A DNA stretch of 64,000 nucleotides from an uncultured Pseudomonadales bacterium (GCA_964607285.1 CAZSJW010000001.1:250555-314554); one strand, 5' to 3'; positions 9,249 to 61,907 are shown, counted from the stretch's first letter. Numbers and translations are program-made. Notes: a model not told the origin generated them from the letters alone.

Positions 9249-9259
9249 CCTTTTACTGT

Positions 9260-11124: not shown

Positions 11125-11230
11125 TTTTACCCCTATATGTATGTATTAAAATATATATTACGGTATCATTTATACACACCCAGTGTGTATTATACAGTAT
11201 GATTTAAAATATGGTGAATATAGGTAAGAG

Positions 11231-12079: not shown

Positions 12080-12082
12080 CTT

Positions 12083-13489: not shown

Positions 13490-13628
13490 ATTAAATCCTA
13501 ATTAGTTTTTATATAAGACTCGTTCATTATAGTTCACATCATGAATATGTCAATATAAATAATTATTGCGATATTAATTTATACGTATATAATACACACA
13601 GTATACACAGAATTCAGTAAGTCAAGCA

Positions 13629-14900: not shown

Positions 14901-15807
14901 ATCAAAAAATCACATTTTCTTTGAACCGCACAGAGATGACTTACTATTGACGTTTGGTGGCAGACTTATTGAATTGCTTGAAAAAGGTGAAAGTGTCACG
15001 AATCACCTAATCTATGGTCGTGATGGTTTCATAAGACCAGCTTTTCTAAGGAAGTTGAGTGAAAGGGATGCGGAAACCCACGCATACCTAAAAAACATTT
15101 CTCAATACACTGGAAAAGAAGAAATATACGATTGGATCGTAACAAATCTGCAGAGCCAATCCATAGATCGGCTAGATTCTGAGTCTATTACTGATATAGG
15201 CATAGCCATTCGACTTATTGAAGAGCGGGCATGCATGCAGTACCTCGGGGTACATCTGATAGAGCACGATCAACCATGTGCATACCCACTCCGTGGATAT
15301 AAAACTTTCAATGAAGACAATCCAACTGACATAGCAACTCAAACCGAACTACAATTTCATCAAATTGTCTTGCCAGCTGTTTTATCTGGAAATCTTAACA
15401 GTCAATATTACTTCTTATCAGGAATTGGTGGCCACCCTGATCACAGAATCCTTGCTGCTTCGGGAACTAAGGTTGCTCAATACACAAACAAAGATCAGTC
15501 TGTTTCTTTTGGTCAGGATTTACCCTATGCCGCAGTACTTGAGTGGTTTAGAAGATCAGACCTTGCATTGGAACAATTCGATATACAATACACCGATATA
15601 TCACACACTTTATTACAAAAAATTGATTTGCTAGAACGCTTTTACAAGTCACAGCTATCACCAGAAGATCTTCGCGTAGTAGAAATGTTTCACAGATCAA
15701 TCGTAAACTTGATGAGCAGGGAGTACTGTACGGACATACTAGCAAAACAAGGCATAGAGATTGATAAGGTTACCGCAATTGAATGCAGATATGGAACACA
15801 TGCATAA
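14887..15807 (+). CDS. PIG-L/LmbE-like deacetylase (putative)
   Basis: FFEPHRDDLLL is a degenerate HPDDE motif, and GIGGHPDHRIL is the H-x-D-H motif. Start chosen at the ATG at 14887 (14-nt overlap); the ORF track starts at 14836. Confidence 0.4.
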   Translation: MNKAESKNHIFFEPHRDDLLLTFGGRLIELLEKGESVTNHLIYGRDGFIRPAFLRKLSERDAETHAYLKNISQYTGKEEIYDWIVTNLQSQSIDRLDSESITDIGIAIRLIEERACMQYLGVHLIEHDQPCAYPLRGYKTFNEDNPTDIATQTELQFHQIVLPAVLSGNLNSQYYFLSGIGGHPDHRILAASGTKVAQYTNKDQSVSFGQDLPYAAVLEWFRRSDLALEQFDIQYTDISHTLLQKIDLLERFYKSQLSPEDLRVVEMFHRSIVNLMSREYCTDILAKQGIEIDKVTAIECRYGTHA

Positions 15808-17059
15808 AGAACAACTTCACCTTGTGTTTCCAGGCCTGCATGCAGAGAACTTTAACAAAGATTCTGGTGGTATCCAACTGGCTGAGGTAAACTTCGCCCA
15901 ATCATACGCAGAAATGCAACTACCAATAACTACATATGTTGGTTCGAAAACTACAAGGAGTCGTAAACACTCAAGTGGTGTACAGATTGAACATGTTTCT
16001 CTTGGTCTTAACGAACCACAGGGAGGAATTACTGACTCTGAAACATTCTGCCTTTCCACTGTAACAAAGTTGGTTACAGCAACCTATGGCCAACCAGATA
16101 ACATAGTTCATTTTACAAGTGTTGGTGCCGCAATGAACTTTTTTACTGACCCAATTAATTACCTACGAAGAAAACAAGGTGGGCCCCAAACTGTATACAC
16201 GTTGCACAACTACCATTACGCAATCGCTAACAAACCATATGATGTTTTTGAGAGCTACCCAACTGAATGGCAATTTCTTCATGAACAGGAATCAAAAGTA
16301 ATATCCTCTGCAGATGCTGTCTGGGTAACAAATCCCACTATTGCTGCTGAACTGTCAAGGCGTTTCTCTCGTAATATACAGTACGCTCCAAACACCATAG
16401 GATCCATTGAAAATCATCACATAAAATCTGTAAAAACGGACTTTATGATATTCACTACTATGTGCCGTCTTGCTAAAGAAAAAAATATCAAACGAACCAT
16501 TGAAGCATTTTTATTGCACGCTAAACAACATCCCGATGCACGACTACTGGTCGCAGGTTCTGGAGAAGAAGATCAAGCACTCTGTGAGTATCTTGATTCA
16601 ATACATTGCGCTTTTACCAGGAGAGGGCAGGAATCAATCAAAAACACAATACAACTATTGAATCAATTCAAAATAATATTTTTGGGGCAAGTTAAGGCTG
16701 CTGAAAAAAGACAGGTATGGCAAGTTACTGACCAATTTATTCTTCCTTCTTTGAGAGAGGTAAGTCCCTTAGTAGGGTTAGAAGCAATGATGTATGGAAA
16801 ACCCATTATTGGCAGTGACATCCCAGGTTGGGCCGACTATAAAAATGAGGGAGCACCAGTAGCCACACCTGATCCAGCATCAACTGAATCCATTGCTGCA
16901 GCAATGGATATCATGAGTCATCTTACAACAAAAGAATTTGAAAAAACTGCTAATACTGCTAGAAGCACCTATGATAAATATCATGCCCCAAATGTTGTGG
17001 TCCCAAAAAGGCTCGAACTCTACAAACTGGTAAAAAATAATTCGCAAGCAGAATTATGA
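15791..17059 (+). CDS. Glycosyltransferase, GT4-like
   Basis: VSPLVGLEAMMYGKPIIGSDIPGWADY. Start chosen at the in-frame ATG at 15791; the track starts at 15761 and 15800 is another candidate. Confidence 0.55.
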   Translation: MEHMHKEQLHLVFPGLHAENFNKDSGGIQLAEVNFAQSYAEMQLPITTYVGSKTTRSRKHSSGVQIEHVSLGLNEPQGGITDSETFCLSTVTKLVTATYGQPDNIVHFTSVGAAMNFFTDPINYLRRKQGGPQTVYTLHNYHYAIANKPYDVFESYPTEWQFLHEQESKVISSADAVWVTNPTIAAELSRRFSRNIQYAPNTIGSIENHHIKSVKTDFMIFTTMCRLAKEKNIKRTIEAFLLHAKQHPDARLLVAGSGEEDQALCEYLDSIHCAFTRRGQESIKNTIQLLNQFKIIFLGQVKAAEKRQVWQVTDQFILPSLREVSPLVGLEAMMYGKPIIGSDIPGWADYKNEGAPVATPDPASTESIAAAMDIMSHLTTKEFEKTANTARSTYDKYHAPNVVVPKRLELYKLVKNNSQAEL

Positions 17060-18186
17060 CGGAGAAGAAATATTTAAACATGAACCTAATGGCTGTTTGT
17101 GGGACAGTGTATCGCAGGGCATCTGATGAAGCTAGTTCATCAGGCTCAGATGTAGCCCTGGAACAACAATTAGATGATTTTTCACAGCATGTTGGCCAGA
17201 TATCTGCTGTATCGCTTGAAAAGACTGGTTTACCTCAAGTTGAAAAAATTGCCAAAAATATAACCGTCTATAGAGTGGCTGATGAATTGATCCCCCAAGC
17301 AATGCGCACAGTTCATGATTTACTTCACAAAGGTAGAACTGATGCAGTAATCGCTCAAGTTATGCACATGGACGTTGCCCTCAAAACTGCAAAAGATTTA
17401 CAAATCAAGACAATTTTCAATCAGCATGACTTTGACGTTTTGCCGAGCATGGGAAAGGGCGGTGAAATTGAACCTACTTTATTTCTGGCTCCAAGCCGTG
17501 CTGTTGCGGAGAGAATAGCAGAAGTGGCTGGCAAAGAAGCAATAATTTATCCAAACAGATTTGCAAATTTGCATGAAATCATAGGAAGTGACACTATTCA
17601 ACAAAAATATGACGTTCTAATGTTTAACCCAAATACGCTAAAGGGTGGCAATATATTTGTTGAACTTGCGAAACGTTTTCCTGAACTTCAGTTTGCCGCA
17701 GTTGAAGGATGGACCGATCTCAAAACCGGTGGAGTTTTTGATCTTCCTCTTATGCAAATCATGGCTCGGTCTTATAGTGGTGATGCTACTGCTGTCCAAA
17801 TCCCAGAAGAACCATCCTTTACTGACATAAAAAATCTAACTGTTTTGCAACCTCAAAAAAGGGTTGGTGACTTGATAAAGGCAGCGAGGCTGGTGCTAGC
17901 CCCTTCTCAATGGGAAGAGGCGTTCGGAAGAGTGATTGTGGATGCAGGTTTAAACAACAGACATATTATTGCTAGTAATATTGGTGGAATACCAGAGGCA
18001 ATGACTGTTGCGGGAATGCCAATTGAGACTCACCCACAACTTTTAGTGGACGATTACACAAACATTGAAGCATGGATTACCGCACTACGCTTCTTTTTAC
18101 AAAATGAGACTAAACTGCCTAAACCAGAGCCAAAATTACCAACACCAAATATTACAGCAGTCTTAGATTACCTAGTAAATAACTAA
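17056..18186 (+). CDS. Glycosyltransferase, GT1-fold (GT4-like)
   Basis: EEAFGRVIVDAGLNNRHIIASNIGGIPEAM. Start overlaps the upstream stop by 4 nt. Confidence 0.5.
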   Translation: MTEKKYLNMNLMAVCGTVYRRASDEASSSGSDVALEQQLDDFSQHVGQISAVSLEKTGLPQVEKIAKNITVYRVADELIPQAMRTVHDLLHKGRTDAVIAQVMHMDVALKTAKDLQIKTIFNQHDFDVLPSMGKGGEIEPTLFLAPSRAVAERIAEVAGKEAIIYPNRFANLHEIIGSDTIQQKYDVLMFNPNTLKGGNIFVELAKRFPELQFAAVEGWTDLKTGGVFDLPLMQIMARSYSGDATAVQIPEEPSFTDIKNLTVLQPQKRVGDLIKAARLVLAPSQWEEAFGRVIVDAGLNNRHIIASNIGGIPEAMTVAGMPIETHPQLLVDDYTNIEAWITALRFFLQNETKLPKPEPKLPTPNITAVLDYLVNN

Positions 18187-19265
18187 TGCAAGAAAAAATT
18201 AAGATTGGGTACGACCCAATCTACAATTACTATCCAACGCACCACGGCGAAATTATTAGAAGTACTCAAAATGACTTCGAGTGGAAGAGTATACCTGGAA
18301 TGGTTCAAAATCATTATGAGGAATCACTTCTATCCGACTCAGCAGATGAAAGAGTGCGTTTCATTAGCGGTGGGACACTTGCCGCTGATGCGTGCGATTG
18401 GGTTTTCTCACCACACATTTTGCCTCTAAATCCTGAACAAAATAATAAAGTTGCTATGGAGATAGAGGCAATTGGCTGGCTGTTTGGCGATACGTATGAG
18501 GAAGTTTCTCAACCAGTTCCACAATGGAAGATCGATATATTTTGTAGAGCTATCATGAATCCATCACTTGTAAAAATATGCTGGCAAAGCCAGTCTGCAT
18601 ACGCTCAATTTACTGAGTTTCAGGTAATCTACAAATTGCCTACTGATGTCACAGAAAAAATTATGAGTATCAGCTCGGTGTTGCTACCAGGCTCAGCCAT
18701 CACTGAGAAAAAGACACCTGACACTTCTGGTAATCACCTGCTTGCCACATGTACCACTGATAATTTCTTTAGAAAGGGGGGTGATGTTTTAGTTACACTT
18801 GTAGAGCTATTAACAAAATTGAATGTACCTCCCTGGAGTCTATCAATAGTCGGTAGCATGCCTAATGAGTTTATTAAGCGTATTTCAGCTGATAACGTAC
18901 ACATCTATCAATCAACCGATTTTAAAGGATTTCAAAAAAGACTTGATTCTGCAGATGTTTTTCTATTCCCTTCCCGTGCTGATTCATTTGGTTTAACTGC
19001 GATGGAAGCAATGAACCATGGTCTGTACGTACTATCAACAAGTGGAAAAGCCGTATTAGCTACAAAAGAGTTCCTATCAGACTATCCAAATCATCAAATT
19101 ATTGAAAGTAAGGGTCATGACGGCACTTACGATATTCTAGACGAGCAGCTTTTCTGTACTGCTGTAATTTCCTTACTTCAAAATCCTATCAAGTTGCAAA
19201 GCTTCGACTCTCCATGCAACCTTGCGAGGTTGCGAAAAGATGTGCTCTCCGTTTTTAGTAGTTGA
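18186..19265 (+). CDS. Glycosyltransferase, GT4-like
   Basis: PSRADSFGLTAMEAMNHGLYVLSTSG. Confidence 0.55.
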   Translation: MQEKIKIGYDPIYNYYPTHHGEIIRSTQNDFEWKSIPGMVQNHYEESLLSDSADERVRFISGGTLAADACDWVFSPHILPLNPEQNNKVAMEIEAIGWLFGDTYEEVSQPVPQWKIDIFCRAIMNPSLVKICWQSQSAYAQFTEFQVIYKLPTDVTEKIMSISSVLLPGSAITEKKTPDTSGNHLLATCTTDNFFRKGGDVLVTLVELLTKLNVPPWSLSIVGSMPNEFIKRISADNVHIYQSTDFKGFQKRLDSADVFLFPSRADSFGLTAMEAMNHGLYVLSTSGKAVLATKEFLSDYPNHQIIESKGHDGTYDILDEQLFCTAVISLLQNPIKLQSFDSPCNLARLRKDVLSVFSS

Positions 19266-19334
19266 TTGTTTTATCAATCATTCTTTTACCCTCTTTACAG
19301 AGGTTGTTTTTTTTGCCATACTCCATCTATTAAC

Positions 19335-38082: not shown

Positions 38083-39687
38083 CTAGCGTGCCTCTGCAAT
38101 CAAGTCCGGATGTTCTTTATCGATATACCAGTAATAAATAATTTCTAGCAATCTTCCAAAGTATTTTTCTGCATAACTGTCTTCTGCATCATCTGGATCT
38201 GGGTAGTATGTTCTCAAGAACTGCATAGCCATTGTGATTAGTACTTCCCTGTTCTGATCTTCGAGTGGCAACCGCAACACTGCCTCGGCAAACGCACCTA
38301 CGTTTCTCAGTTTAAGTCTGTTAAGGACAACACCAATCAGTAAACAATGATTAAAATTGTCTTCTCTCAATTCAAAGCTTAAAGCTCTGTACAATCCCAA
38401 CAACGTTGAGAACTCACTCGGTTTTCCTTGATCGTGCTCAACAACCTCAAGAGCATTGTTCATACTTCGCAAGGTAACGTCTGAAATTGCATTATTGTGG
38501 GCTCTCAAAGCTGCTTTTGTGGTTGCATCCACAAATGGTAACAACGGAACCACAAAGGCTGGATTGTGATCCGAAATTGAAGGGTCAATAGCTATTAGAT
38601 CTTTGAAAACCTGCATCAGTTCAACCAGTTCACTGGAGTTTAGTTGGAGAATGTTTTTTGAATCTTTGCACACTTCCAAGAAACCATTAAAAATAATTCC
38701 TGCATACTTAGGTAGGTTAAATCGATCTCGCTGTAACATAGCTCGTACCTCTTGAGGATCCAGTACTGCTACAATATCAGATACAGTTGCTTCAGACTGA
38801 TCATCTGTCCCAAGGGTATCAGCAAACTTGCTGAGGAGGGTGTTCCTGATCGCAAGTATTGCACTTTTCATTTCTGCAAAAATCACAGGGAAGGCGAGAT
38901 CGTTTACTCCAGGTTTTAGTTCTGTTCTATCCAAATATTTATGAATTCCTGGAATTGGCTTATCTTCATTCCTAGCTAATCGAACCAAGTGCTTGTAGTC
39001 AGAGAGCAACTCAAAAAAATTTTCAGCTCGTTTTTCATTTGTAAAGCGTGACAAACTACAGTCTTCAAAGGCCCTGATAATCAAGGCGGCTTGTTGCTCC
39101 GTAGTCAACTCTTCCCGTGCGCAAAGAGAGATGACCCTATACGAATCTTCCTCTTGCCATGAGTGCTTGGTCATTCTTAGGGAGACTGCAACTAAATCAG
39201 AAAATAATTGAAAAACACTGTCGTCATTCTGCTTTGTGTTTCTGGGAAACTTAACTTCGCCCGCAATATACTCTATCCATGCTTCAATCTTTTCACGGAG
39301 AGCACGGGTAATCAAGGCATCTGATCTACAGAGTGCAGCCAGTGCATGTGCAAGTCCTTTTGAGAAAGTGTTCACGTATCGATTTTTATCTTTCTCAGAC
39401 CAATCAACCCAGTCTGTAAACGACTCTTTAAACTGAATTATAAGAGTTTCTAAGTCTACCGTGAATGAGGCGCCACTAGATTCACGACCTCCACCCTGCA
39501 TTTCCATAATCTGTCCAATGGTTTCAAAATCCTGAAGAAATTTTTTTTCAATCCTTGCTACATCACCACGATTTGCTCGCACTTTTCCAGTCAGATGTTG
39601 GTGCAGTTCCTGCAATTCATTCCGCAATTGTGGTAGTACCCGCTTATAAATGAATGAAGGATGCTCTGTATACTCTGGTGATTTCAT
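38083..39687 (-). CDS. Hypothetical protein (534 aa, predicted all-alpha, cytoplasmic)
   Basis: Long intact minus-strand ORF. Divergent from the ileS leader. No recognisable domain. Confidence 0.5.
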   Translation of the reverse strand: MKSPEYTEHPSFIYKRVLPQLRNELQELHQHLTGKVRANRGDVARIEKKFLQDFETIGQIMEMQGGGRESSGASFTVDLETLIIQFKESFTDWVDWSEKDKNRYVNTFSKGLAHALAALCRSDALITRALREKIEAWIEYIAGEVKFPRNTKQNDDSVFQLFSDLVAVSLRMTKHSWQEEDSYRVISLCAREELTTEQQAALIIRAFEDCSLSRFTNEKRAENFFELLSDYKHLVRLARNEDKPIPGIHKYLDRTELKPGVNDLAFPVIFAEMKSAILAIRNTLLSKFADTLGTDDQSEATVSDIVAVLDPQEVRAMLQRDRFNLPKYAGIIFNGFLEVCKDSKNILQLNSSELVELMQVFKDLIAIDPSISDHNPAFVVPLLPFVDATTKAALRAHNNAISDVTLRSMNNALEVVEHDQGKPSEFSTLLGLYRALSFELREDNFNHCLLIGVVLNRLKLRNVGAFAEAVLRLPLEDQNREVLITMAMQFLRTYYPDPDDAEDSYAEKYFGRLLEIIYYWYIDKEHPDLIAEAR

Positions 39688-51149: not shown

Positions 51150-52341
51150 TGCTCAAAACACTGTGCTGGTGCACCATAAAGTACTACTCTGGCTGCTCAT
51201 TGGACTACTTGCTCTAGGACAGCTGCAGCGCATACAGCTAACCACCACTGTTGCTGGTTATATGCATGAAATCATACTGGCAGCAATGCTAGCTATCTTT
51301 CTAATTGAAAATCGAACCAATCGCTCAAATCTTTTTTCTATGTTTTCTCATGTAGCACATTCCCCTTTGATCTGGTTTATAGGCTGGATCGGTATTTGGA
51401 CTAGCATCAATGCCATTCTTCAGGCAGATATTGTTCCCTTGCTGTATTTGGGTAGACTTGGGTTACTGGCTATGAGTGCAGTAAGTATTCACCTAACGTT
51501 TCAGTCAAATCGAACGTACTTACACTACTCGTTACTAGCGCTGGGTTGCATATGGGCAGTGTTGGGTGTGCTTCAGTATCTATTTATTCCAGATACCCGT
51601 TTCCTTCTGATTCTAGGCTGGGATGAGCATTACTACAGACTTATTGGCACAGTTTTTGACCCTGCCTACATGGGCATACTTATGGTACTTGTAAGTATTT
51701 TTTTATTTTCTGTACTCTCTAAAAAACCTACTCTACAAAAAACAATGCTAGTTTGCCTGTTCTCAGCGGTTTGCGCACTAACATATTCAAGAGCAAGCTA
51801 CGGTGCACTCGCAATAGCGTATCTTGGCGTCTTGATCGTACAAAGAAAAACTGCTGTCTTTCCTGTGCTTGTCAGCGCGGTAATAGCTGTTGTCATAGTT
51901 TTTGTAGCACCAAAACCTGGTGGGGAGGGAGTGATCCTGACCAGAACCGCAAGCATCACTGCACGAACAGGACAAGCACAACAGCTTTTGCAAAACTTGC
52001 AACCAATGCAAGTACTCTGGGGTGAAGGTCTATTTTCAAAGCTAACAATAGAAGAATCCAAACAGGCAACCGTATTAGGTATTCCACAACACGCACGTGT
52101 GCCTGACAACATCTTATTGTTGCTTTTCAGAGGCACTGGTTTGGTGGGCTGCACATTCTTACTGTACGGTATCTGGAAACAATTTCACCAATTAGTAGAA
52201 TCATTGCCATACCTTACCATTGCACTCGCCAGCACCATCTGGCATAGCCAATTTAACAATACGCTGCTACAACCCTTTGTGCTGTTATTTTTGTTGCTTG
52301 GATTTATGCCCACACTTGAAAAATTTACAAACGGAAAGTGA
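51124..52341 (+). CDS. O-antigen ligase/polymerase-like polytopic membrane protein (Wzy_C-like)
   Basis: About 10-12 TM segments with a large loop containing ...YSRASYGALAIAYLGVLIV... Follows the flippase and GT2. Confidence 0.4.
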   Translation: MKKILYKTNAQNTVLVHHKVLLWLLIGLLALGQLQRIQLTTTVAGYMHEIILAAMLAIFLIENRTNRSNLFSMFSHVAHSPLIWFIGWIGIWTSINAILQADIVPLLYLGRLGLLAMSAVSIHLTFQSNRTYLHYSLLALGCIWAVLGVLQYLFIPDTRFLLILGWDEHYYRLIGTVFDPAYMGILMVLVSIFLFSVLSKKPTLQKTMLVCLFSAVCALTYSRASYGALAIAYLGVLIVQRKTAVFPVLVSAVIAVVIVFVAPKPGGEGVILTRTASITARTGQAQQLLQNLQPMQVLWGEGLFSKLTIEESKQATVLGIPQHARVPDNILLLLFRGTGLVGCTFLLYGIWKQFHQLVESLPYLTIALASTIWHSQFNNTLLQPFVLLFLLLGFMPTLEKFTNGK

Positions 52342-53050
52342 CTTTGTATTCCTGTTCCAAAACGTTTCCACCCTGATCGGTAACAGTAAACTTCAAGTTG
52401 TTCTCACCCTCAGATAATCGTATTCTATGAGTAAATGCTCCCTCGCTATCAGGAAAGACTAAGCGATCATTGATAAGAATTCTTGATTTAGGCTCTGTTT
52501 TCCCCGTAATGGTGAGGTCTTGGTTAGCTCTACCCTGAATTTCTTGTCCTTCAGATGGATTCGTAATTTGGATGGAAGGTTTCTCTGTGTCTAGCAACAC
52601 CAAATATGATTTACTGACAGCTGACTCATTTTTTGCTGCATCAATGGCATACGCTGAGACTGTGTTTTCACCCTCTAGTAAAGTGGCATCTATCTCGAAA
52701 TCGCCAGTGTCTTGTATAGTAATCTCCTGATCTCTATTACCATTCAGTAAAAATACTAGCGTACTACCAGCTTCACCAAACCCTGTGATTAGTAATTGAG
52801 CACTGTTTGTGGCTTGGACAGGAGCAGAAACTATTGGTACTTGCGGTGGTAAGGTATCGATGGGGTTGAGAGAACTGGCATCGCTTAGAAATGCATTGAT
52901 TATTCTGATAAACCCAGGAATTACAACAAAAATAAAGCCGAATAGAATCAGTATCGAAGCAATAATCAACAAAAAGGTTTGCTTTACAAGTTTTTGTCGT
53001 TCTTTGCGAACAAGTCGAGACGATGCATATTCGGGTCTTGGGGTTGCCAT
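52325..53050 (-). CDS. Membrane-anchored protein with two tandem Ig-like (Big-type) domains
   Basis: N-terminal TM (LLIIASILILFGFIFVVIPGFI). Two ~90-aa beta-rich repeats ending ...GENTVSAYAIDAAKNES and ...GENNLKFTVTDQGGNVLE. Confidence 0.4.
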   Translation of the reverse strand: MATPRPEYASSRLVRKERQKLVKQTFLLIIASILILFGFIFVVIPGFIRIINAFLSDASSLNPIDTLPPQVPIVSAPVQATNSAQLLITGFGEAGSTLVFLLNGNRDQEITIQDTGDFEIDATLLEGENTVSAYAIDAAKNESAVSKSYLVLLDTEKPSIQITNPSEGQEIQGRANQDLTITGKTEPKSRILINDRLVFPDSEGAFTHRIRLSEGENNLKFTVTDQGGNVLEQEYKVTFRL

Positions 53051-53116: not shown

Positions 53117-53878
53117 CTATTTATCTTTTTTCGCCCGAATAGCTAGAAACAGCGGAAACTCACTCCTTGCCCTGTTTTCCATCCGTGCCGCTGAACCAGA
53201 GCTACTTTTGTTTGAGATCCATTCTTCAAGTGCGGTCACCGCAAACCCTCGATCTGTAAGCAACCCGACAATCTCCTGCATCGATCTATGAAATGACCAA
53301 GTCACGCTAGAATTTGGTTGCCCAGGGCTCATGGTTATTGGCACTTCTAGCGGGGAGATATATCTGTTCATCCATCGGTACTGCTGTTTAGTGTTTTCAT
53401 CTACCCCCCATCCAGATTGTCTGGGCACTCTAAAGCAAGGGTGATTTAACACAAGCACGATAGTTCCATTCTCGTCTAACATGCGTGTAGCATTGTTTAA
53501 AGCTCCATCCCAATTTCGCATATTCTGCAATGACAGCAAGAACACTGCATGGCTAAAGTGCGATGCATTGGTGAGAAGGGGCTTTGTGACGTCCTTACAT
53601 ACAAATGTGTAATTTTGCTTCTTACAATGCGTACATGCATACTTGATTAATTCAGCTGAAGCATCTATTCCTAGGTACCCAGCAATCTGTGGCAATGCTT
53701 GTGTCAGAATTCCCTGTCCACAACCGAAATCTACCAAGGAGCTAGAAGGAGAAAGTTGCAGCAAGCGTAAAAGACCAGGCAAAATGACCTGCTGGTGGTA
53801 GTAGTGACCATCAGTTCCAACCAACTTGTCATACCAGGAGTTGACTGAGTTCCACGATGTGTTTGGCGGTGCTTTCAT
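53117..53878 (-). CDS. Class I SAM-dependent methyltransferase
   Basis: Motif I LVDFGCGQGILTQAL. 253 aa. Confidence 0.65.
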   Translation of the reverse strand: MKAPPNTSWNSVNSWYDKLVGTDGHYYHQQVILPGLLRLLQLSPSSSLVDFGCGQGILTQALPQIAGYLGIDASAELIKYACTHCKKQNYTFVCKDVTKPLLTNASHFSHAVFLLSLQNMRNWDGALNNATRMLDENGTIVLVLNHPCFRVPRQSGWGVDENTKQQYRWMNRYISPLEVPITMSPGQPNSSVTWSFHRSMQEIVGLLTDRGFAVTALEEWISNKSSSGSAARMENRARSEFPLFLAIRAKKDK

Positions 53879-53915
53879 GCGATTTTTATTCTATATGCAG
53901 CTACACTGAACGGTG

Positions 53916-53988
53916 AGCCTGCGACCGGAATTGAACCGATGACCCGCGGTTTACGATACCGCTGCTCTACCATCTGAGCTACGCAGGC
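53916..53988 (-). tRNA. tRNA-Thr (anticodon CGT)
   Basis: The reverse complement folds as a cloverleaf: acceptor GCCTGCG/CGCAGGC, D-arm GCTC-AGATGGTA-GAGC, anticodon arm GCGGT-ATCGTAA-ACCGC (U33, CGT, A37), T-arm ATCGG-TTCAATT-CCGGT, discriminator U. CCA is not encoded. Confidence 0.8.
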
Positions 53989-54193
53989 AAGAAAAGAGAA
54001 GCTGATATATTGTACCGCATTTTTATATCTTACGACTTGTATCTATCATGAAGAGATTAAATTTGTTTTAGTGACCAGACTTGGCAACATTTCACTGGAA
54101 AAGATATGCCACTTAATTCGGACAGTTTTGTCCTTTATTCATACTCAGTTTTAATGAATTTCTCACAAACCAAACTTAGAATGAACTCAGAAT

Positions 54194-54766
54194 ATGCTTG
54201 ATACTCTAAAGCAAACCGACGCAAACAGTCAGTTTCGAACTAGAAACATGGCTTTTTTTGCTTTAACTGAAGTTGCAGTACTCACTGTATTGCTTCTCAT
54301 TGCAGTAACTTGGTCACGACCCGATGCTGATAAACAAACTGTAGTAGTTTCACCATCAGCGAGTCCGATTGAACTGCAAGAACCATCAGCAACAACTTAC
54401 ATCGATGATGACCGCACTACTCCAACAGCAAAAGAAGCACTCCTAGAAAATATTATTGAAGACCCAGAGGCATATACTGGTCAACAGGTGACAGTCACCG
54501 GTGTTGTGAATGTTGTCTATACAGATAGAGCATTTTTACTTGATGGACCAGGGCTGATAAATGATACTATCTTGGTGATCAGTAAGACCGCATACAATGT
54601 AGAGTCTTTTGAATCTGTTGCAGACACCACTAAAACAAGTATTACTATTTCTGGTACAGTAGGGGTATTCGACCTGGCAACTGTTGAGTCGATGCTGAAT
54701 TCAACTCTATCTTCTGCCCAGCTTGACACTTTTGCGAGAAAACTTTTATCCTTGTTGATTCTGTAG
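54194..54766 (+). CDS. Hypothetical membrane-anchored protein (190 aa)
   Basis: N-terminal TM (MAFFALTEVAVLTVLLLIAV), then a Thr/Ser-rich extracytoplasmic region. Confidence 0.4.
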   Translation: MLDTLKQTDANSQFRTRNMAFFALTEVAVLTVLLLIAVTWSRPDADKQTVVVSPSASPIELQEPSATTYIDDDRTTPTAKEALLENIIEDPEAYTGQQVTVTGVVNVVYTDRAFLLDGPGLINDTILVISKTAYNVESFESVADTTKTSITISGTVGVFDLATVESMLNSTLSSAQLDTFARKLLSLLIL

Positions 54767-54816
54767 TAGCGAATTCCGAATGATACAGACTGCATATTCG
54801 TACTGAGATATGAATG

Positions 54817-56136
54817 CTACTCAACAAGATGTCTTTCAGAAGGTAAGTAAGCAGTGATTGCAGGTCCGTTTGGTTGCCTTAAAAAAACGGTTGAGAGTTT
54901 TTTTCCCACAAGTAACTTACTTCCACCCTCTACCTTCCATACCCGCTCAATCCTCATCTCTTTTTCAATAATTTTTCGTGATCTTTCCAGTTCAGCTTCA
55001 CGAGATTGGTGGGAATCTTCCTTTTCTGTTGCTCCCGTATCGTTATTTATATATACGCCTTTTTCATCAAGCAGAGCAATTAGTAACGCCAGGTGCAAAC
55101 TTGGAATTCTACTATGCAGAGAAATTGCATTCATGTCGCATATGACAGCCACGTTACGTAGCAGATTCGTACCTTTAATATTCAATGTAAGCAAGTCTAT
55201 CAAATCCATTTTAACTGAAACAACGAGGTGTTTATTATCTTCAATGAATTTCAGTTCGTCATATTCTAGGTATGGTGGTTTTTCTTCGCTCTCTGGGTCA
55301 ACCACTCTGCTAGTGTACGGTCCAGTACTATAGTAGTAGCCCTTTATTCTCTGGATACATTCATCAACATCCGCTCCCAGACTAGTAGTAACGAAAAGTA
55401 CATTGCCATCTTGAACAGCATGTTCAAAGTGCTTTGCCAATCTAATCCAACTAACACTCAACATACCTCCCACATCTAGCATGATAAGCGGAAAGTCTGT
55501 CAGTTTTTTCTCTTTTAATCGTTGTTGGATAATGCTTGCAATCGTGAGCTCTTCGCCAATGAGCTCACCAAACTCTACATCCTCTGGCAATTCCTGTGCC
55601 TGCAGCCAAAATTTTCTTTCTAGGCTCGCTGAAGTATTGTCATTCGGTATCCAAACTGCTTTAGCGCTACCATATTCTCTCCCATAATCTCCGTCACCCA
55701 GTGGCCAATCTAGCTCTACTTTTTTCATTTCCAGCTCAAACTCATGATTTTTCTTAGCACGTTCCTCAAATGCGGATAGTTGATGCAAATGAGCAAAACC
55801 CGCAACTGTTTGCTTTCCTGCTAACACAAATGCTATTTCTTCTTCCGATAAATTAATTTTTTTGAGTAGCTTGATATCAGCGCTACTCAGTGGGCAAACT
55901 GTTCTCATACCCTCGTCATCAACCACAGATTTTTGCAGGCTTTCTACAAGTTTAATTTCAGATGAACTAAGATGTACTGCAGTTTGCGTGTTCAAGTTTG
56001 GCATGATTTCATTCCTATCAGCAAAGAATGAAAAGCTCTCAACCTGATTCAGTTCCTGTTCACTCAGCTGTGATCTTCCATACGTTTGATCACTAGCTAA
56101 GTATTGTTTACCTAACAAACTCATTTCGTTTTTCAT
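54817..56136 (-). CDS. Hypothetical protein (439 aa) with short N-terminal internal repeats
   Basis: Repeats LSSSEIKLVESL / LSSADIKLLKKINLSEEEI. Central Rossmann-like stretch LIMLDVGGMLSVSW...VLFVTTSLGADVDE. No family recognised. Confidence 0.45.
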   Translation of the reverse strand: MKNEMSLLGKQYLASDQTYGRSQLSEQELNQVESFSFFADRNEIMPNLNTQTAVHLSSSEIKLVESLQKSVVDDEGMRTVCPLSSADIKLLKKINLSEEEIAFVLAGKQTVAGFAHLHQLSAFEERAKKNHEFELEMKKVELDWPLGDGDYGREYGSAKAVWIPNDNTSASLERKFWLQAQELPEDVEFGELIGEELTIASIIQQRLKEKKLTDFPLIMLDVGGMLSVSWIRLAKHFEHAVQDGNVLFVTTSLGADVDECIQRIKGYYYSTGPYTSRVVDPESEEKPPYLEYDELKFIEDNKHLVVSVKMDLIDLLTLNIKGTNLLRNVAVICDMNAISLHSRIPSLHLALLIALLDEKGVYINNDTGATEKEDSHQSREAELERSRKIIEKEMRIERVWKVEGGSKLLVGKKLSTVFLRQPNGPAITAYLPSERHLVE

Positions 56137-56236
56137 ATAATTATGGTATCACTCATTTTTCGTTCAGATGCTAGAACAGAGCTGGGTGAAGAATAAGGGC
56201 GCAAATCAGAATTGAGAAAGTTGAATAGCAACAGTA

Positions 56237-56310
56237 TGGAGCGGGATACGGGAATCGAACCCGCTTCTTATCCTTGGGAAGGATACATACTACCAGTGTA
56301 CTAATCCCGC
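56237..56310 (-). tRNA. tRNA-Gly (anticodon CCC), CCA encoded
   Basis: The reverse complement is GCGGGAT-TA-GTAC-ACTGGTA-GTAT-G-TATCC-TTCCCAA-GGATA-AGAA-GCGGG-TTCGATT-CCCGT-ATCCCGC-T-CCA. Anticodon loop U33-CCC-A37; discriminator U. Confidence 0.8.
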
Positions 56311-56397
56311 TAGAAATCACGTCTATTGTAACACTGCTCACTGCAACCAACAATTTTTACAGTACCGTTTTCCCTATTCTAGAAATGGGAGAAGTGT

Positions 56398-58440
56398 TTG
56401 TATACTGAGTGCATGAGTGAAAGCCCACCAAAGATATTGGGTCGTTCTTTTGAGGCTTCCCAAAAAATCTCCACTGCTAGTAGAGAAGGGAGTACCTTGG
56501 CGCAGCTCGCAAGACAAGAGGGCTTACCAAGCAGCGAGGCGACAGAGCTGACATATAGAAAAGAGCTACTCAAGCAAGAACATTTGCAAGAGATTTGTTT
56601 GATGCAAGCGCGAGCCTTACAGTTTGTATTCGATGTCGCAATAGAAAATCCTCACATCACTAAGCAGGAGCTTATTGACCTGCTGAAAAACTCAGCAGAC
56701 GTAGTACAACCACGATTCCTGGAGCAATTGGCTGAAACTGTTACAACATGTGCTGCATCTATTGAATCACTGCGTAGGGAAGTCATTCATGACGACACAG
56801 AAATTCAAGACAATCAGCGATTCACTGAAGAGGTTTTTACTAGTTTGGTAACTCCAGCGTATGTCACCAAAAAGGGTTTGTCCTCTGAGGATGTACTAAG
56901 CCTGACCAAGTTACCTCATACAGTAGTGTTTACTAGCTTTGGACTTATCTTGCATGTATACAATGAAGAGGCTTTCTCAATTTTATGGCAACCACCTATC
57001 GCTGGTGTAGTTATTGCATCGCATACGCTTACTTACAAAGCGAGACAATCACAGAATGAAAAAACACTCATTCTACCGATCACTGTAATTAGTGGTCAAA
57101 ATCAAACCATGGTCATTGACCATGAGCAAGCGCACTCTGAGTACAACGCACTTGTTGACACCCAAAAGATACTAGATGTAGAAAAGAAGAGTTCAAGTTC
57201 TAGTGAAACAAAAGTAGCTGCAGAGATGGTTGTGAGTCAAGAAACTGATGTTACATCACTGACTGCAGAACTTGCACAATTAGTAGAACTACTCAGATCA
57301 GATCCAAATAATATATACAGTGTGCGAAAACAACCAGCTTTTCTTGCGGCTATAACATATGCATTACACAGAGCCAAAGATGAGTACATAGCAGACATGA
57401 AGCCAAAGGAAGGAGATGCAAATGGCAGATATAACATCTTGACTGATGAGTTTGGACCCTACAATTTTTTTTCATCTGCACTCAAAGTCGGTTCACGAAC
57501 ACCCTTGATGACAGAACTTTGGGATGTATATGCCCCACTGCTAGAGGAATACACAGCATCTGCCCGTTCTCTATATCGCTTTTACTCATCAGATTCAACT
57601 TGGGCACAACGAAAAGAACTCTTCCGCTTAGTGCTTGTTCAGTTCCCGATTGATCAGTGGGAAAGTCAGCTAGACCGCCTTGGTTTCATGAGAGAACGTG
57701 AATTAGCAACCTGTGCTGAGGCCGCTTCATTTGCCTTCAACATGGAGCTTTCTGCTCTAAATGGACTAACTGATGAGCATTTGATCTATCAGAAATTTTT
57801 CAGGCCCCACCTACAGCGATTTGATCAGATTTCGGAAGAAAATACACATGCGATAACCAAGAACCAATCGTATTCACGGCTGTCTGTTCTTTCTCAATCA
57901 AAAGAGAAAGTTAGAGCAGTACAAAATGAAATTAGGCAAACCCCAGAATACCGTTTTCTAAACAGACTGCAAGCATTCAGGAACATGGCACATGAAATTG
58001 AAAACAATATACATGAACTTTCAAACAGCATCCCCAGAAACTTTGCAAACATACAGGAGCTCGATCATCAGCTACAAATCCTTATCCAAAAACTGAATCA
58101 AACTGTCAAGTTTTCTGCTGATAGTACTCAGATGGAAGCTGCACTCATTCCCATAGTTGAGGAAATCCTACCACTCCATCAAAAATGTAAATCTATTGCT
58201 GATGCTATAACAACAATGCAAAATGCGGAACTGCTTGCTGAAGAGAAAGCTGCTGAATGGAGTATCACTCTGCCTAGAAAAGAACGACATATCCGAGAGA
58301 GTATTTTTTTTGCACACTTGCGAAAGTTGGAAGACAGCTTTTACGACAGAATCAAAGATCTTCCAGATTCAGAAGGCCTTATTCCAGAAGTGGCAAAGTT
58401 TGTCTCAGAGGTAGAGTCATACTTGGATACTGCTGGTTAG
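56398..58440 (+). CDS. Hypothetical protein (680 aa, helical, no recognisable domain)
   Basis: TTG start at 56398 preceded by the SD GGGAGAAG; first ATG at 56413. Divergent from tRNA-Gly. Confidence 0.45.
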   Translation: MYTECMSESPPKILGRSFEASQKISTASREGSTLAQLARQEGLPSSEATELTYRKELLKQEHLQEICLMQARALQFVFDVAIENPHITKQELIDLLKNSADVVQPRFLEQLAETVTTCAASIESLRREVIHDDTEIQDNQRFTEEVFTSLVTPAYVTKKGLSSEDVLSLTKLPHTVVFTSFGLILHVYNEEAFSILWQPPIAGVVIASHTLTYKARQSQNEKTLILPITVISGQNQTMVIDHEQAHSEYNALVDTQKILDVEKKSSSSSETKVAAEMVVSQETDVTSLTAELAQLVELLRSDPNNIYSVRKQPAFLAAITYALHRAKDEYIADMKPKEGDANGRYNILTDEFGPYNFFSSALKVGSRTPLMTELWDVYAPLLEEYTASARSLYRFYSSDSTWAQRKELFRLVLVQFPIDQWESQLDRLGFMRERELATCAEAASFAFNMELSALNGLTDEHLIYQKFFRPHLQRFDQISEENTHAITKNQSYSRLSVLSQSKEKVRAVQNEIRQTPEYRFLNRLQAFRNMAHEIENNIHELSNSIPRNFANIQELDHQLQILIQKLNQTVKFSADSTQMEAALIPIVEEILPLHQKCKSIADAITTMQNAELLAEEKAAEWSITLPRKERHIRESIFFAHLRKLEDSFYDRIKDLPDSEGLIPEVAKFVSEVESYLDTAG

Positions 58441-58515
58441 TTCGCTGCTGCACTACTACATTTTATTTGTAGCAAAATCAGTGAAAGAGTACTCTCTGCT
58501 TAGAGAGCACAGTCT

Positions 58516-58900
58516 CTAACTGTCTGTATTAGTACGTTCAGCTTGATAGTACTTAATCAATTCTTTATCGTAGGCGATACGATTGCCTTGATACAGCACC
58601 TCTTTTGCAGAAGCTAAATCAGGAAACGATATGCGAAAAGTAGTGAGTGTCCATTTTATTAACTCGAATACCAATCTGTTCTTTTTACTTCGAGAATCTT
58701 CAGTACTACCATAACGGTTGATATCAGCATCAATATGTGCCAACTCTCCAACTGTTCTTACTATTTCAGGTTGTTGTAAGCCAAGATCAGTAATTAAGGT
58801 TACTAAATATCCGCACCTCGCAGCGCATCATACCGTAAACTTCCTGAGAGTGTCACAGTTCCTTGATATTGTTCAGTACCTATACCAGTCTCTTTAACCA
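58516..58900 (-). pseudogene. Decayed gene remnant: two short minus-strand reading frames (about 32 aa MVKETGIGTEQYQGTVTLSGSLRYDALRGADI*, then 75+ aa ...LAHIDADINRYG...) that join with a 1-nt shift
   Basis: A stop closes one frame 6 codons before the other opens. The downstream frame starts only with TTG. The region sits in ~0.9 kb of otherwise non-coding DNA. Confidence 0.25.
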
Positions 58901-59332
58901 TAGAATGCCTTTGATTTGTAAGTACTGAGAACAAGTATAGCAAACTACAAGATCAGTATATTGCACCTATTGATGCTTTTACTTAAGAAGATTCTGGTAA
59001 ATTTTTCACTATATAGCCTTCATAATTGTTATTGTTTCTTTCTTTACAAGAGGTGGGATTAACAAACCCATCATTGCCATTGCATCCGTAGCAGTGGGAG
59101 CAGCAGCGACTGCGTTGCTATTCATTCCACTTCCCATCGGATTTCAATGGCATTACATTTGGGGTATTGCGGCAATCGCTGCTCTCTTTGGTCACAGATA
59201 CATAGAGTAGCGAAAAAGCATCAAACCAAATCACAAAGCCGACTCAGAAATGGGTCGGTTTTTACTTCTCTAATTTTTTACTGAAAAAATCTAAAAATTA
59301 ACTGCAGACGTAGCAAAAAAAGACTGTCTCTA

Positions 59333-59866
59333 CTATCTCACGTAGTAGTAAAATGCACCATTCTTATGTTCCACGATTATTCTATCTTTGTCCTGATAAA
59401 CATTGGTTACATGCCCTGGCACATACCAAGGACCTACGCTAGCAGAAACAATCTGGACTAAAAGCTTTTTTGCGTTGTCAGTTAACCTGTCATTGTTCTC
59501 AACAAAATCAGTAATAAAACGAGTCTCAAATGCAACCTGAGCTACAAATTCATCTATCACCATTTGTAAATACTCACGAGGATTCTTGGATTCCTTGTCT
59601 GCAGGACGGATATAACGTCTTGCTGATACTGAGTTTGGTTCAAAACTGCCTGTTGAAGCAGGGTATTTACCTCGTTTTTTTCTATCTATAGAATCTAATA
59701 TAACTTTCACAGCTTCTGCTTTGAAGTAGCTATAACCCCATCTATCTTGCATGTCTTTCACCCGCTCAATAATTGTCTCAGGCTTTTCTCCTACATTTAA
59801 CAAGCCTCTCTCTAAACCCCAATCCACAACATCTTGTCTTGTTTCAAATGGTGATTCTACAAACAT
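59333..59866 (-). CDS. Hypothetical protein (177 aa)
   Basis: Intact minus-strand ORF adjacent to tRNA-Asp. No motif recognised. Confidence 0.4.
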   Translation of the reverse strand: MFVESPFETRQDVVDWGLERGLLNVGEKPETIIERVKDMQDRWGYSYFKAEAVKVILDSIDRKKRGKYPASTGSFEPNSVSARRYIRPADKESKNPREYLQMVIDEFVAQVAFETRFITDFVENNDRLTDNAKKLLVQIVSASVGPWYVPGHVTNVYQDKDRIIVEHKNGAFYYYVR

Positions 59867-59973
59867 ACGAAACTTTCTTAGTCATTTGTAAAGATAGGCA
59901 AATTAATATACATCAAATGCAAGTAACAAGTAAGTACAACAACAAATTTTAATTTAATTTTTGTTTACAATTG

Positions 59974-60046
59974 CGAGCCCGACCAGATTCGAACTGGCGA
60001 TCTCTTCCGTGACAGGGAAGCATGTTAACCGCTACACCACGGGCCC
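59974..60046 (-). tRNA. tRNA-Asp (anticodon GTC)
   Basis: The reverse complement is GGGCCCG-TG-GTGT-AGCGGTTA-ACAT-G-CTTCC-CTGTCAC-GGAAG-AGAT-CGCCAG/TTCGAAT/CTGGT-CGGGCTC-G. Anticodon loop U33-GTC-A37. Discriminator G, as expected for tRNA-Asp. Confidence 0.8.
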
Positions 60047-60388
60047 ATTTGTGTCATTAGCTGATCCTTTGTTGGGACGGATGGCACCTTCACCATCCTC
60101 ATGAGCCGTCTCCAGATAAGCGTGCGGTACAACAAGGTACCAATTGTCTACGGTTCAAAGCCGCAACATAGGCTCATCTAATGACAAAGTATCAGCAAAT
60201 GTATTTGTTTATTAAAGCTCTCACTATTCAGTCTATCACTATTCCAACAGCCAGAGCAGAGCGATATTATACGCTACCTTCCGCAGGTTTGCCAAGCCTA
60301 AACAATACCCTGAACACTGAGCAAAAAACTCATTACCTCTACAGTTTTTGTCAGGATGAGGTATGATAATACAGAAAGTGAGAAACCT

Positions 60389-60973
60389 ATGCCAACACTC
60401 ATCATACTTGCCGTTATTGTCGGAGTCGCTTTGTACGTAGTTTCTATTTACAACGCTCTGCAACGCCTGAAAACCCAAATAGCAGCCAGCATCCAAGAAA
60501 TTGGCAACCAGCTGAAACGCCAAGCTTCATTGATTCCTAACCTTGAGACAGCAGTCAAAGGCTTTCTCAAACATGAAAAAGGTATTTTCGAGATGCTCAC
60601 TGCAGCCCGCAAGTCTGTGGCACATGCCCAAGAAACAGGTGCAACCGCAGACATTGAAACAGCAATCACTAAGGTTCAGCAAATGGTTCCTCAACTTAGC
60701 ATAGCGGTTGAAGACAATCCAGAGCTTAAAAGTGATGCCACTGTCACCAAGTTTATGTCAGAACTAACAGACACCGCTGACAAACTCACCTACGCCCGCC
60801 GTGCTGTTATTGATTTATCACAAAGATATAATGAAAAACTAGTTACAGTTCCTTCTAGTTTGATTGCAAACATGTTCGGCTTTAAACCTGAGCAAGGTTT
60901 AGAGATGCCAACTAGCGGCTCACATTTATCCGTTTCTGGCAAAGAAATGGAAGACCACCGCGTTAGTTTGTAG
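60389..60973 (+). CDS. lemA: LemA-family protein
   Basis: N-terminal TM then YNALQRLKTQIAASIQEIGNQLKRQASLIPNL is the LemA signature region. Start at the ATG at 60389 (MPTLII...). Followed by htpX, a common pairing. Confidence 0.75.
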   Translation: MPTLIILAVIVGVALYVVSIYNALQRLKTQIAASIQEIGNQLKRQASLIPNLETAVKGFLKHEKGIFEMLTAARKSVAHAQETGATADIETAITKVQQMVPQLSIAVEDNPELKSDATVTKFMSELTDTADKLTYARRAVIDLSQRYNEKLVTVPSSLIANMFGFKPEQGLEMPTSGSHLSVSGKEMEDHRVSL

Positions 60974-61001
60974 TCTCCACAGCTACCTTTCAGAAAAAAC
61001 C

Positions 61002-61907
61002 ATGACACACTACGATTTGGTTTCCAGCAACAAAAACAAGTCTCTGGTCATCATCACACTTTTCATGACTTTTATAGTCGGAGCGGTGTATATCATGTCC
61101 GTTGGACTTGGATATGGATTAGACATAGTGGGGATTGCACTGATCATATCTGGAGTCATGTCATTCGCCTCCTACTGGTGGTCTGACAAAATTATCCTAG
61201 GTATGTCTGGTGCACGTCCTGCTACCCGAGAAGAATTCTTTGATTACTACACTGTAACCGAAAACATAGTGCTCGGGCAGCGTATGCCCATGCCAAAACT
61301 CTATGTTATTGATGACACTGCGATGAATGCATTTGCGACAGGTCGTGATCCTGACCACGCCGTAGTGTGCGCAACGACAGGATTACTCACTAGGTTGAAT
61401 AGAGCAGAGATTGAAGGAGTTGTGGCTCATGAATTAGCACATGTTCAAAATTACGATATTCGATTGATGTCGATTGTGACCATCCTAGTAGGATTCATTG
61501 CACTTCTATCAGACTGGATGCTGCGTATGTCCTTCTATGGCGGGGGTAAGCGTGACAAAAATAGTGGGGGACAACTGCAAGTTGTGTTTATGGTGGCAGG
61601 CATTTTGCTAGCGCTGCTTTCGCCAATCATTGCACAGTTAATTCAGCTTGCTATCTCTCGTAGACGAGAGTTCCTGGCAGATGCCACCGGGGTAGGGATG
61701 ACCAAAAACCCTGAGGGCTTAGCTAAAGCTTTGGAGAAAATTAGTCAAGATCGTGAGCCTCTAGAGGCTGCTAATAAAGCGACAGCACATTTATATATTT
61801 CCAACCCACTGAAAAATGTTCATGGAGCAGTTGGAACTTTTGCCTCGATGTTTCAGACTCATCCTCCTGTCAAAGATAGACTGGACGCTCTAAGGGGATT
61901 ACAATAA
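61002..61907 (+). CDS. htpX: Protease HtpX homolog (M48 zinc metalloprotease)
   Basis: Two TMs, HELAHVQNYD (HExxH) and a downstream EFLAD glutamate. Four TM segments overall. Confidence 0.85.
   Translation: MTHYDLVSSNKNKSLVIITLFMTFIVGAVYIMSVGLGYGLDIVGIALIISGVMSFASYWWSDKIILGMSGARPATREEFFDYYTVTENIVLGQRMPMPKLYVIDDTAMNAFATGRDPDHAVVCATTGLLTRLNRAEIEGVVAHELAHVQNYDIRLMSIVTILVGFIALLSDWMLRMSFYGGGKRDKNSGGQLQVVFMVAGILLALLSPIIAQLIQLAISRRREFLADATGVGMTKNPEGLAKALEKISQDREPLEAANKATAHLYISNPLKNVHGAVGTFASMFQTHPPVKDRLDALRGLQ

Follow-up and report, generated by a model that had tools for sequence, protein, structure and literature searches.

The object of this analysis was a region of about 6 kb (positions 53916-60046) in a stretch of 64,000 nucleotides from an uncultured bacterium (GCA_964607285.1, CAZSJW010000001.1:250555-314554). 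This whole stretch is referred to as the window, and all positions are counted from its first letter. The region contains the genes of tRNA-Thr, tRNA-Gly, and tRNA-Asp, with four protein-coding genes between them, and is flanked by a gene for an Ig-like-domain protein on the left and by the LemA and HtpX genes on the right (Table 1). The spacers between these genes are called slots, numbered from left to right, and the genes located in them are called cargo. The rest of the window is made up of ordinary chromosomal core genes encoding MraW, penicillin-binding protein, Mur ligases, FtsW, a class I aminoacyl-tRNA synthetase, GatC, LemA, and HtpX.

In the whole window, ARAGORN found three tRNA genes and no more; all lie on the minus strand, and Rfam recognized each of them with 62-63 bits. 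These genes had been reported in an initial annotation of the sequence, as had open reading frames (ORFs) of 190, 439, 680, and 177 aa, all of which were found at their places. Counted from the ATG at 56413, where the NCBI-derived copy starts, the 680-aa ORF (56398-58440, plus strand) encodes 675 aa, and its product is referred to as the 675-aa protein. The non-coding DNA previously estimated at about 890 bp is an 892-bp gap at 58441-59332 with a GC content of 0.38.

Table 1. Features of the tRNA-Thr/Gly/Asp locus in the window
Feature	Position	Strand	Remarks
Ig-like-domain membrane-anchored protein (Big_6 / Glucodextran_B)	52325-53050	-	Left core flank; Pfam; adjoins tRNA-Thr in 28 related loci
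Class I S-adenosylmethionine (SAM)-dependent methyltransferase	53117-53878	-	Slot 1 (Ig-protein/tRNA-Thr) cargo; Pfam Methyltransf_11/25, E = 3e-11
tRNA-Thr (CGT)	53915-53988	-	ARAGORN and Rfam; assigned to the ancestral cluster
190-aa predicted single-pass membrane protein, no family	54194-54766	+	Slot 2 cargo
439-aa protein, N-terminal repeats and conserved C-terminal alpha/beta region, family of two	54817-56136	-	Slot 2 cargo
tRNA-Gly (CCC)	56237-56310	-	ARAGORN and Rfam; assigned to the ancestral cluster
675-aa helical protein, putative zinc metallopeptidase	56413-58440	+	Slot 3 cargo; ORF reaches back to TTG at 56398
Two ORF fragments in different frames (about 32 and 97 aa)	58516-58910	-	Possible frameshifted gene remnant
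Small hydrophobic reading frame	59001-59210	+	Read from the sequence; 38 aa from GTG at 59094, 69 aa stop-to-stop
177-aa soluble protein, no family	59333-59866	-	Slot 3 cargo
tRNA-Asp (GTC)	59973-60046	-	ARAGORN and Rfam; assigned to the ancestral cluster
Strongly structured 135-nt element, lineage-specific	60052-60186		Slot 4 (tRNA-Asp/LemA)
LemA (60356-60973) and HtpX M48 peptidase (61002-61907)	60356-61907	+	Right core flank; Pfam

Conserved backbone and variable spacers

Related loci were collected with HtpX as an anchor, taking one genome per species, which yielded 80 loci (L001-L080) with 56%-91% HtpX identity. Nearly all of them are labelled Patescibacteria, 'Pacebacteria', Paceibacterota, Collierbacteria, or similar, and on this sequence relationship the host of the window is assigned to the Microgenomates/'Pacebacteria'-type bacteria of the candidate phyla radiation (CPR, Patescibacteria). 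The reduced genome supposed in the initial annotation agrees with such a host. The proteins and tRNAs of the window were mapped onto the 80 loci, and the 22 fully covered loci constitute the canonical set. The comparison covers species representatives and deeper branches and is based on contigs of metagenome-assembled genomes (MAGs).

In the 22 canonical loci the genes keep one order and the same strands, namely Ig-domain protein (minus), tRNA-Thr (minus), tRNA-Gly (minus), tRNA-Asp (minus), LemA (plus), and HtpX (plus), and this order persists even at 56% HtpX identity. The LemA and HtpX genes are neighbours in 79 of the 80 related loci. The conservation of this order argues that the three tRNA genes are an ancestral cluster rather than the borders of an inserted island.

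The lengths of the spacers in this backbone range across three orders of magnitude. The spacer between the Ig-domain protein and tRNA-Thr is 24-924 bp long in the 22 relatives (median 92 bp; 24-196 bp in 17 of 20 relatives) versus 864 bp in the window. The corresponding values are 0-4941 bp (median 542 bp) and 2248 bp for the Thr/Gly spacer, 17-4950 bp (median 766 bp) and 3662 bp for the Gly/Asp spacer, and 108-1951 bp (median 264.5 bp) and 309 bp for the Asp/LemA spacer. Seven of the 22 relatives, scattered over the whole identity range, have tRNA-Thr and tRNA-Gly only 0-10 bp apart. The single tRNA-bracketed islet proposed initially is thus replaced by at least four separate, independently varying spacers in a probable ancestral tRNA cluster.

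Neighbouring junctions of the backbone served as a control. Their median gaps are -100 to +90 bp, and gaps longer than 1.5 kb occur at 0-6% of loci for six neighbouring junctions and at 21% for the HtpX/GatC junction; these gaps and those given next are approximate since gene ends were estimated from tblastn matches. For the interval from the Ig-domain protein to LemA, the median is 2950 bp, and 89% of loci are above 1.5 kb. In the window it reaches 7305 bp, near the maximum of 7697 bp. Contigs of the relatives also end more often at this place: 28 contig ends, those of the two closest relatives among them, lie within 2.5 kb of HtpX on the slot side versus 10 on the other side. This excess suggests strain- or population-level heterogeneity that breaks metagenome assemblies.

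In total, 81 ORFs of at least 60 aa were found in the slots of the 22 loci, and just two families recur widely among them. A LysM protein is present in 13 of the 22 loci, the deepest branches included, where it adjoins tRNA-Gly in the Gly/Asp slot (e.g., L003, L016, L025, and L026). PolX, with or without a PHP domain, is present in 9 of the 22 and is located before LemA in the Asp/LemA slot (e.g., L003, L017, and L065). Both are probably ancestral backbone genes. The window contains neither gene and no remnant of either. A 534-aa ORF located among core genes (38083-39687, minus strand) gave a weak tblastn hit (E = 0.04) to PolX of the relatives; as a relocated PolX it was rejected, since it had no Pfam match.

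Two more cargo families are each common to only two loci, and the remaining cargo ORFs are singletons. Among the defence-like singletons, an EcoO109I-like restriction enzyme accompanies a C5 DNA methylase, and a VWA protein a MoxR-type ATPase. Other singletons are an ABC-2 transporter pair, MetK, inositol monophosphatase (IMPase), an EEP nuclease, a histidine phosphatase, HAD, and NUDIX proteins. An FkbM methyltransferase, a GT2 glycosyltransferase, and a DUF2975 protein with a helix-turn-helix (HTH) partner were also found, and many slot proteins of the relatives belong to no family at all. The C5 DNA methylase, located in the Thr/Gly slot of L028 (1952-3980), is fused to a MerR-type HTH domain; the EcoO109I-like enzyme was matched among the cargo, and its placement in the ORF next to this methylase is inferred from a summary scan. 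The Thr/Gly slot of L041 (3963-8421) holds the MoxR-type AAA_5 ATPase together with a VWA/CobT_C protein.

The cargo genes of the window, the methyltransferase included, have no relative in any of the 80 loci by tblastn, phmmer, and hidden Markov model (HMM) search. The initial annotation had claimed lineage-specific content and proposed a check of related genomes; this check showed that the backbone and tRNAs are kept in the relatives and the cargo of the block is not, so that the block is not syntenic and conserved. The methyltransferase gene (53117-53878) also appears to be a lineage-specific insertion and is the only cargo gene with a mildly atypical composition (GC content at third codon positions, GC3, z = +2.0). 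The variable zone therefore begins at about 53051, to the left of the coordinates first reported. Its true right edge would be marked by the LemA promoter. This is a sigma-70-like sequence, TTGACA ... TATGAT, upstream of LemA (60290-60355), and it is conserved with the two closest relatives (L001 and L002).

Origin of the cargo genes

The initial annotation had proposed integration at a tRNA gene followed by loss of the integrase. At 45-64 kb of the window, not a single exact 11-mer from the three tRNAs was found outside the tRNA genes, and no significant direct repeats bracket the block, the best being short chance-level matches; the repeats of tRNA 3' ends that would be remnants of attachment (att) sites are thus missing from this interval. 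Family searches revealed no integrase or transposase in the window cargo. None was found in 30 cargo proteins of the relatives scanned singly, or among the 25 families listed of the 63 matched across all 81 cargo ORFs. Compared to the other 48 genes of the window, the four block genes have GC z-scores of -0.2 to -1.4 and synonymous-codon log-likelihood z-scores of 0.0 to +1.9, the latter value belonging to the 177-aa protein. Their GC, GC3, and codon usage therefore fall within the spread of the host, and the foreign signature expected from a comparison with the flanks was not seen. DNA similarity to 50,697 phage and 72,556 plasmid records was confined to the tRNAs, and protein-level searches of phages and IMG/VR were negative; on these searches, a phage or plasmid origin of the block was rejected. 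The position next to tRNA genes is the sole positive evidence for an island with a lost integrase.

We conclude, with a probability of about 0.7, that the locus is a hotspot of gene turnover with multiple slots at an ancestral tRNA cluster between core genes, and that the 6-kb block is the filling unique to this genome. Three features of a hotspot are present, namely conserved core flanks, content that differs between genomes, and variability above that of neighbouring junctions, while the integrase, att repeats, and atypical composition of an island were not found. The spacers beside and between the tRNA genes would be permissive sites at which accessory genes come and go repeatedly and replace one another. 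Insertions may be tolerated in them since the genes on either side are transcribed separately, in convergent or divergent orientations, so that no operon would be broken. Such turnover would run without a resident integrase. Illegitimate insertion and deletion are likely routes in DNA that is under no operon constraint, as is homologous recombination of close relatives at their conserved flanks; this has been proposed for hotspots free of mobile elements. The cargo may be long resident or come from similar donors, hence its host-like composition. Erosion appears to be in progress in the block, as suggested by the possible gene fragment and the low coding density.

Classical tRNA-associated integrative islands carry a tyrosine integrase and attL and attR sites derived from the tRNA 3' end. 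One or several such islands, inserted at tRNA 3' ends with later decay of the integrase and att sites, are an unlikely origin of the cargo. The locus resembles them in the location of accessory DNA directly beside tRNA genes and in its sporadic distribution, the window cargo being absent from relatives, and the decaying gene fragment with low coding density hints at erosion. Moreover, relatives of the 675-aa protein were found 60-200 bp from tRNAs in 2 of 13 other loci, and a slot of one relative holds a restriction-modification (R-M) system, typical island cargo. Unlike such islands, the locus shows no integrase, att duplication, compositional signature, or similarity to phages, plasmids, or IMG/VR sequences, and its insertions occupy several distinct spacers, to the left as well as to the right of the tRNAs.

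Still less probable is an origin in place, by which ancestral or de novo genes diverged past detection beside the tRNAs or were relocated within the same genome: the host-like composition of the cargo, the many family-less slot ORFs of the relatives, the fast evolution of the 675-aa family (about 20% identity among members) and its chromosomal location elsewhere, and the only 57% identity of the sole homologue of the 439-aa protein all favor it, but spacers as short as 0-17 bp mean that slot genes are truly absent from some genomes, the occupied slots contain unrelated known families (MetK, IMPase, NUDIX, the R-M system, and the ABC transporter) that cannot be diverged copies of one another, and the window shows no trace of the probably ancestral LysM and PolX genes.

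Several observations weigh against the turnover hotspot. The genomes covering the slots reach at most about 79% HtpX identity to the window, and the contigs of the two closest relatives, CAZBMX01 (91% HtpX identity) and CAZBTU01 (89%), break off at the edge of the slots. Among species-level relatives, the median exact runs common to the tRNAs are only 12-22 nt long; therefore, the tRNAs could serve as recombination anchors only in far closer populations. The composition of the window cargo is host-like, and a horizontal origin of this cargo is no more than possible. Finally, the orphan status of the 190- and 177-aa proteins applies to the libraries and loci searched.

Proteins and other elements of the block

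The absence of a recognizable family, claimed initially for all the block proteins, holds for Pfam, PHROGs, PADLOC, NCBIfam, and PDB; wider searches revealed 60 relatives of the 680-aa ORF product and one of the 439-aa protein. The relatives of the 675-aa protein were found by an exhaustive HMMER search covering 1.84 billion representatives. All 60 are uncharacterized, 21 of them matched at E <=1e-10, and two are full-length at 27% identity, so that this protein is not the orphan it was taken for. A word-indexed search recovered only its self-match.

In an alignment of 42 members of this family, H237, E238, and H241, which form an HExxH motif, are invariant in all 42, as are E324, A327, Y350, P412, and E428. 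The conserved blocks read FPLIVV...HExGHaEN, YAL..AKDE(I/L)LA(E/D), GGvYDYF, and LFRWVLAQIPi..W..QL. E324 is located 87 residues past HExxH in an ExxA[DE] context, inside a predicted helix (308-328). This pattern suggests an undescribed zinc-metallopeptidase-like family, and the 675-aa protein is probably a cytoplasmic peptidase that binds zinc via H237, H241, and E324.

The arrangement is similar to that of the gluzincins (M48 HtpX/Ste24 with HExxH ... ExxAD and thermolysin-like enzymes with HExxH ... ExxxD): HExxH opens a predicted helix, a hydrophobic strand (FPLIVV) precedes it, and an invariant Glu follows downstream in a predicted helix. HtpX of the window, encoded 2.5 kb from the 675-aa gene, has motifs of similar form and spacing (HELAH at 143-147 and EFLAD at 223-227). 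A single hhalign alignment of the family against the HtpX profile sets both motifs in register with a probability of 0.6%; the protein was therefore rejected as an M48/HtpX relative, and the likeness is kept for motif layout alone. In contrast to the gluzincins compared, the 675-aa protein has no transmembrane segments and contains long N-terminal helical and C-terminal coiled-coil regions. None of the 42 family members matched Pfam, the window protein had no match in NCBIfam, and a PDB profile search with the family returned only coiled-coil noise. Two points weigh against the peptidase assignment. First, the family has no significant similarity to M48, Pfam, NCBIfam, or PDB entries, and its putative peptidase nature is deduced from its motifs. 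Second, AlphaFold2 without a deep alignment gave an unreliable model, with a predicted local distance difference test score (pLDDT) of 45.

A metagenome scan with a 14-sequence subset of the alignment yielded 13 loci in which family members are located amid housekeeping genes (FtsH, 5'-3' exonuclease, GT4, FBP aldolase, and release factor). Two organisms share the same syntenic position, and no conserved partner gene was found across the 13 loci. Two of the members are located near tRNAs, one about 196 bp after tRNA-Ser (L085:1071-2718) and the other about 60 bp after tRNA-Cys/tRNA-Leu (L088:1430-2715). This proximity is above a chance guess, and the numbers are too small to judge it. The family is fast-evolving, sparse, and chromosomal and does not consist of mobile-element genes.

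The short N-terminal repeats reported for the 439-aa protein are present as four copies of L[ST]xx[ED][ILV]xx[ILV]. The mean count in shuffled sequences was 0.06, and none of 2000 shuffles reached four. The protein had no match in Pfam, PHROGs, NCBIfam, PDB, or PADLOC. Its one homologue, on a 1.5-kb Logan contig (L081), is 55-60% identical over both halves (57% in the search match) and retains three of the repeats; the gene therefore belongs to a real family of two. The homologue (L081:3-1340) is broken by an in-frame TAG, with an ATG one codon later (GTG TAG AGT ATG), which may reflect a pseudogene, a split into two genes, or an assembly error on this short contig. The C-terminal half was considered as a degenerate Rossmann fold or class I SAM methyltransferase and rejected: it had no match in Pfam, NCBIfam, or PDB, hhalign probability was <=0.5% against two methyltransferase-type proteins, and the candidate motif I reads DVGGMLS, not GxGxG. 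The AlphaFold2 model obtained without a deep alignment (pLDDT 37) shows only an alternating beta/alpha pattern.

The 190-aa product is a predicted membrane protein, as annotated, with one strong hydrophobic segment at residues 20-38 (Kyte-Doolittle 2.5). The initial annotation had suggested effectors or host-interaction proteins in the block; the other three block proteins (439, 675, and 177 aa) contain no membrane or signal-like segment. Both the 190- and the 177-aa proteins form singleton clusters (for the 190-aa protein, at 90%). They have no homologue in Pfam, PHROGs, PADLOC, NCBIfam, PDB, IMG/VR, or 94 loci, and tblastn against phage genomes was also empty for the 177-aa protein. A defence function of the cargo was rejected, as no orphan matched PADLOC and the mad2 hit of the methyltransferase reflects generic methyltransferase similarity.

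The frameshifted gene remnant reported in the 892-bp gap is plausible. The gap contains neighbouring fragments at 58803-58910 and 58516 to about 58800, both on the minus strand but read in different frames, which would give about 130 aa if joined; no intact homologue is known to confirm the remnant. The repaired fragment had no homologue in Pfam, PHROGs, PADLOC, NCBIfam, PDB sequences, or the related loci, and a decayed LysM or PolX gene was rejected for lack of similarity. The small hydrophobic frame on the plus strand ends at 59210 and is followed by a hairpin and T5 at about 59238-59263.

The 135-nt element between tRNA-Asp and LemA has 23-nt inverted-repeat arms and forms a stable multibranch hairpin. 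Its minimum free energy is -54 kcal/mol, with a z-score of -5.2 on the plus strand and -3.4 on the minus strand. It occurs as a single copy in the window. A known or conserved RNA was rejected, since Rfam gave no match and the element is not conserved in relatives, some of which have a gap of only 64-82 bp with no room for it. Only a portion of its 3' half can be recognized in L001, the closest relative, whose contig starts inside the element. A small RNA and a decayed miniature mobile element are both conceivable.

Outside the locus, GC content is lower (0.35-0.40) over a 10-kb stretch at about 9000-19300, where gene GC z-scores fall to as little as -1.9. Among the products of this stretch are a GT1 glycosyltransferase, an MTS-type methyltransferase, and at least one large protein without a family (9862-11124, 420 aa). 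It is a candidate for a second variable region and might serve surface glycans.

Relation to known hotspots and significance

Small size, high synteny, and up to half of the genes without known function are characteristic of CPR/Patescibacteria genomes. Our literature search found no description of this region in genomes of Patescibacteria. Hotspots as such are well known in cultivated bacteria; therefore, the conceptual advance is modest. Hotspots of horizontal gene transfer were described as "spots" between persistent core genes with rapidly changing content (Oliveira, Touchon, Cury & Rocha 2017, PMC5635113). About half of them have no mobile elements, 27% have no mobility protein, and 29% contain tRNA or tmRNA genes. 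The core genes flanking them show raised recombination, and a recombination model was proposed for those without mobile elements (PMC5635113). The locus studied here is similar in its syntenic core bounds, genome-specific content, tRNA genes, and absence of recognizable mobile elements or integrases. Unlike these hotspots, which were defined within species on complete genomes, it was compared across species representatives and deeper branches on MAG contigs. It also differs in its subdivision by three tRNA genes, with at least four spacers that vary independently of one another, and in its host, which is assigned to the reduced-genome CPR bacteria.

A further-reaching proposal, which we regard as tentative and rather doubtful in its entirety, combines two claims. 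The first is that the 675-aa protein founds a new zinc metallopeptidase family, known from uncultured bacteria only and absent from curated libraries, whose members combine a helical N-domain and a coiled-coil tail with the active site HExGHaEN ... AKDEiLAE. The second is that the Thr-Gly-Asp array of Microgenomates is a multi-site landing pad that works independently of integrases and in which such lineage-specific genes are tested and then lost.

The uncharacterized HExxH family is the most interesting by-product of the locus. With at least 60 members and an invariant zincin motif, it offers a concrete target for structure prediction and biochemistry. The order Ig-protein/tRNA-Thr/tRNA-Gly/tRNA-Asp/LemA/HtpX is an easily recognized marker for harvesting accessory genes across Microgenomates MAGs, and knowing the entry sites of new genes in CPR genomes helps to find the lineage-specific genes likeliest to shape the episymbiotic lifestyle.

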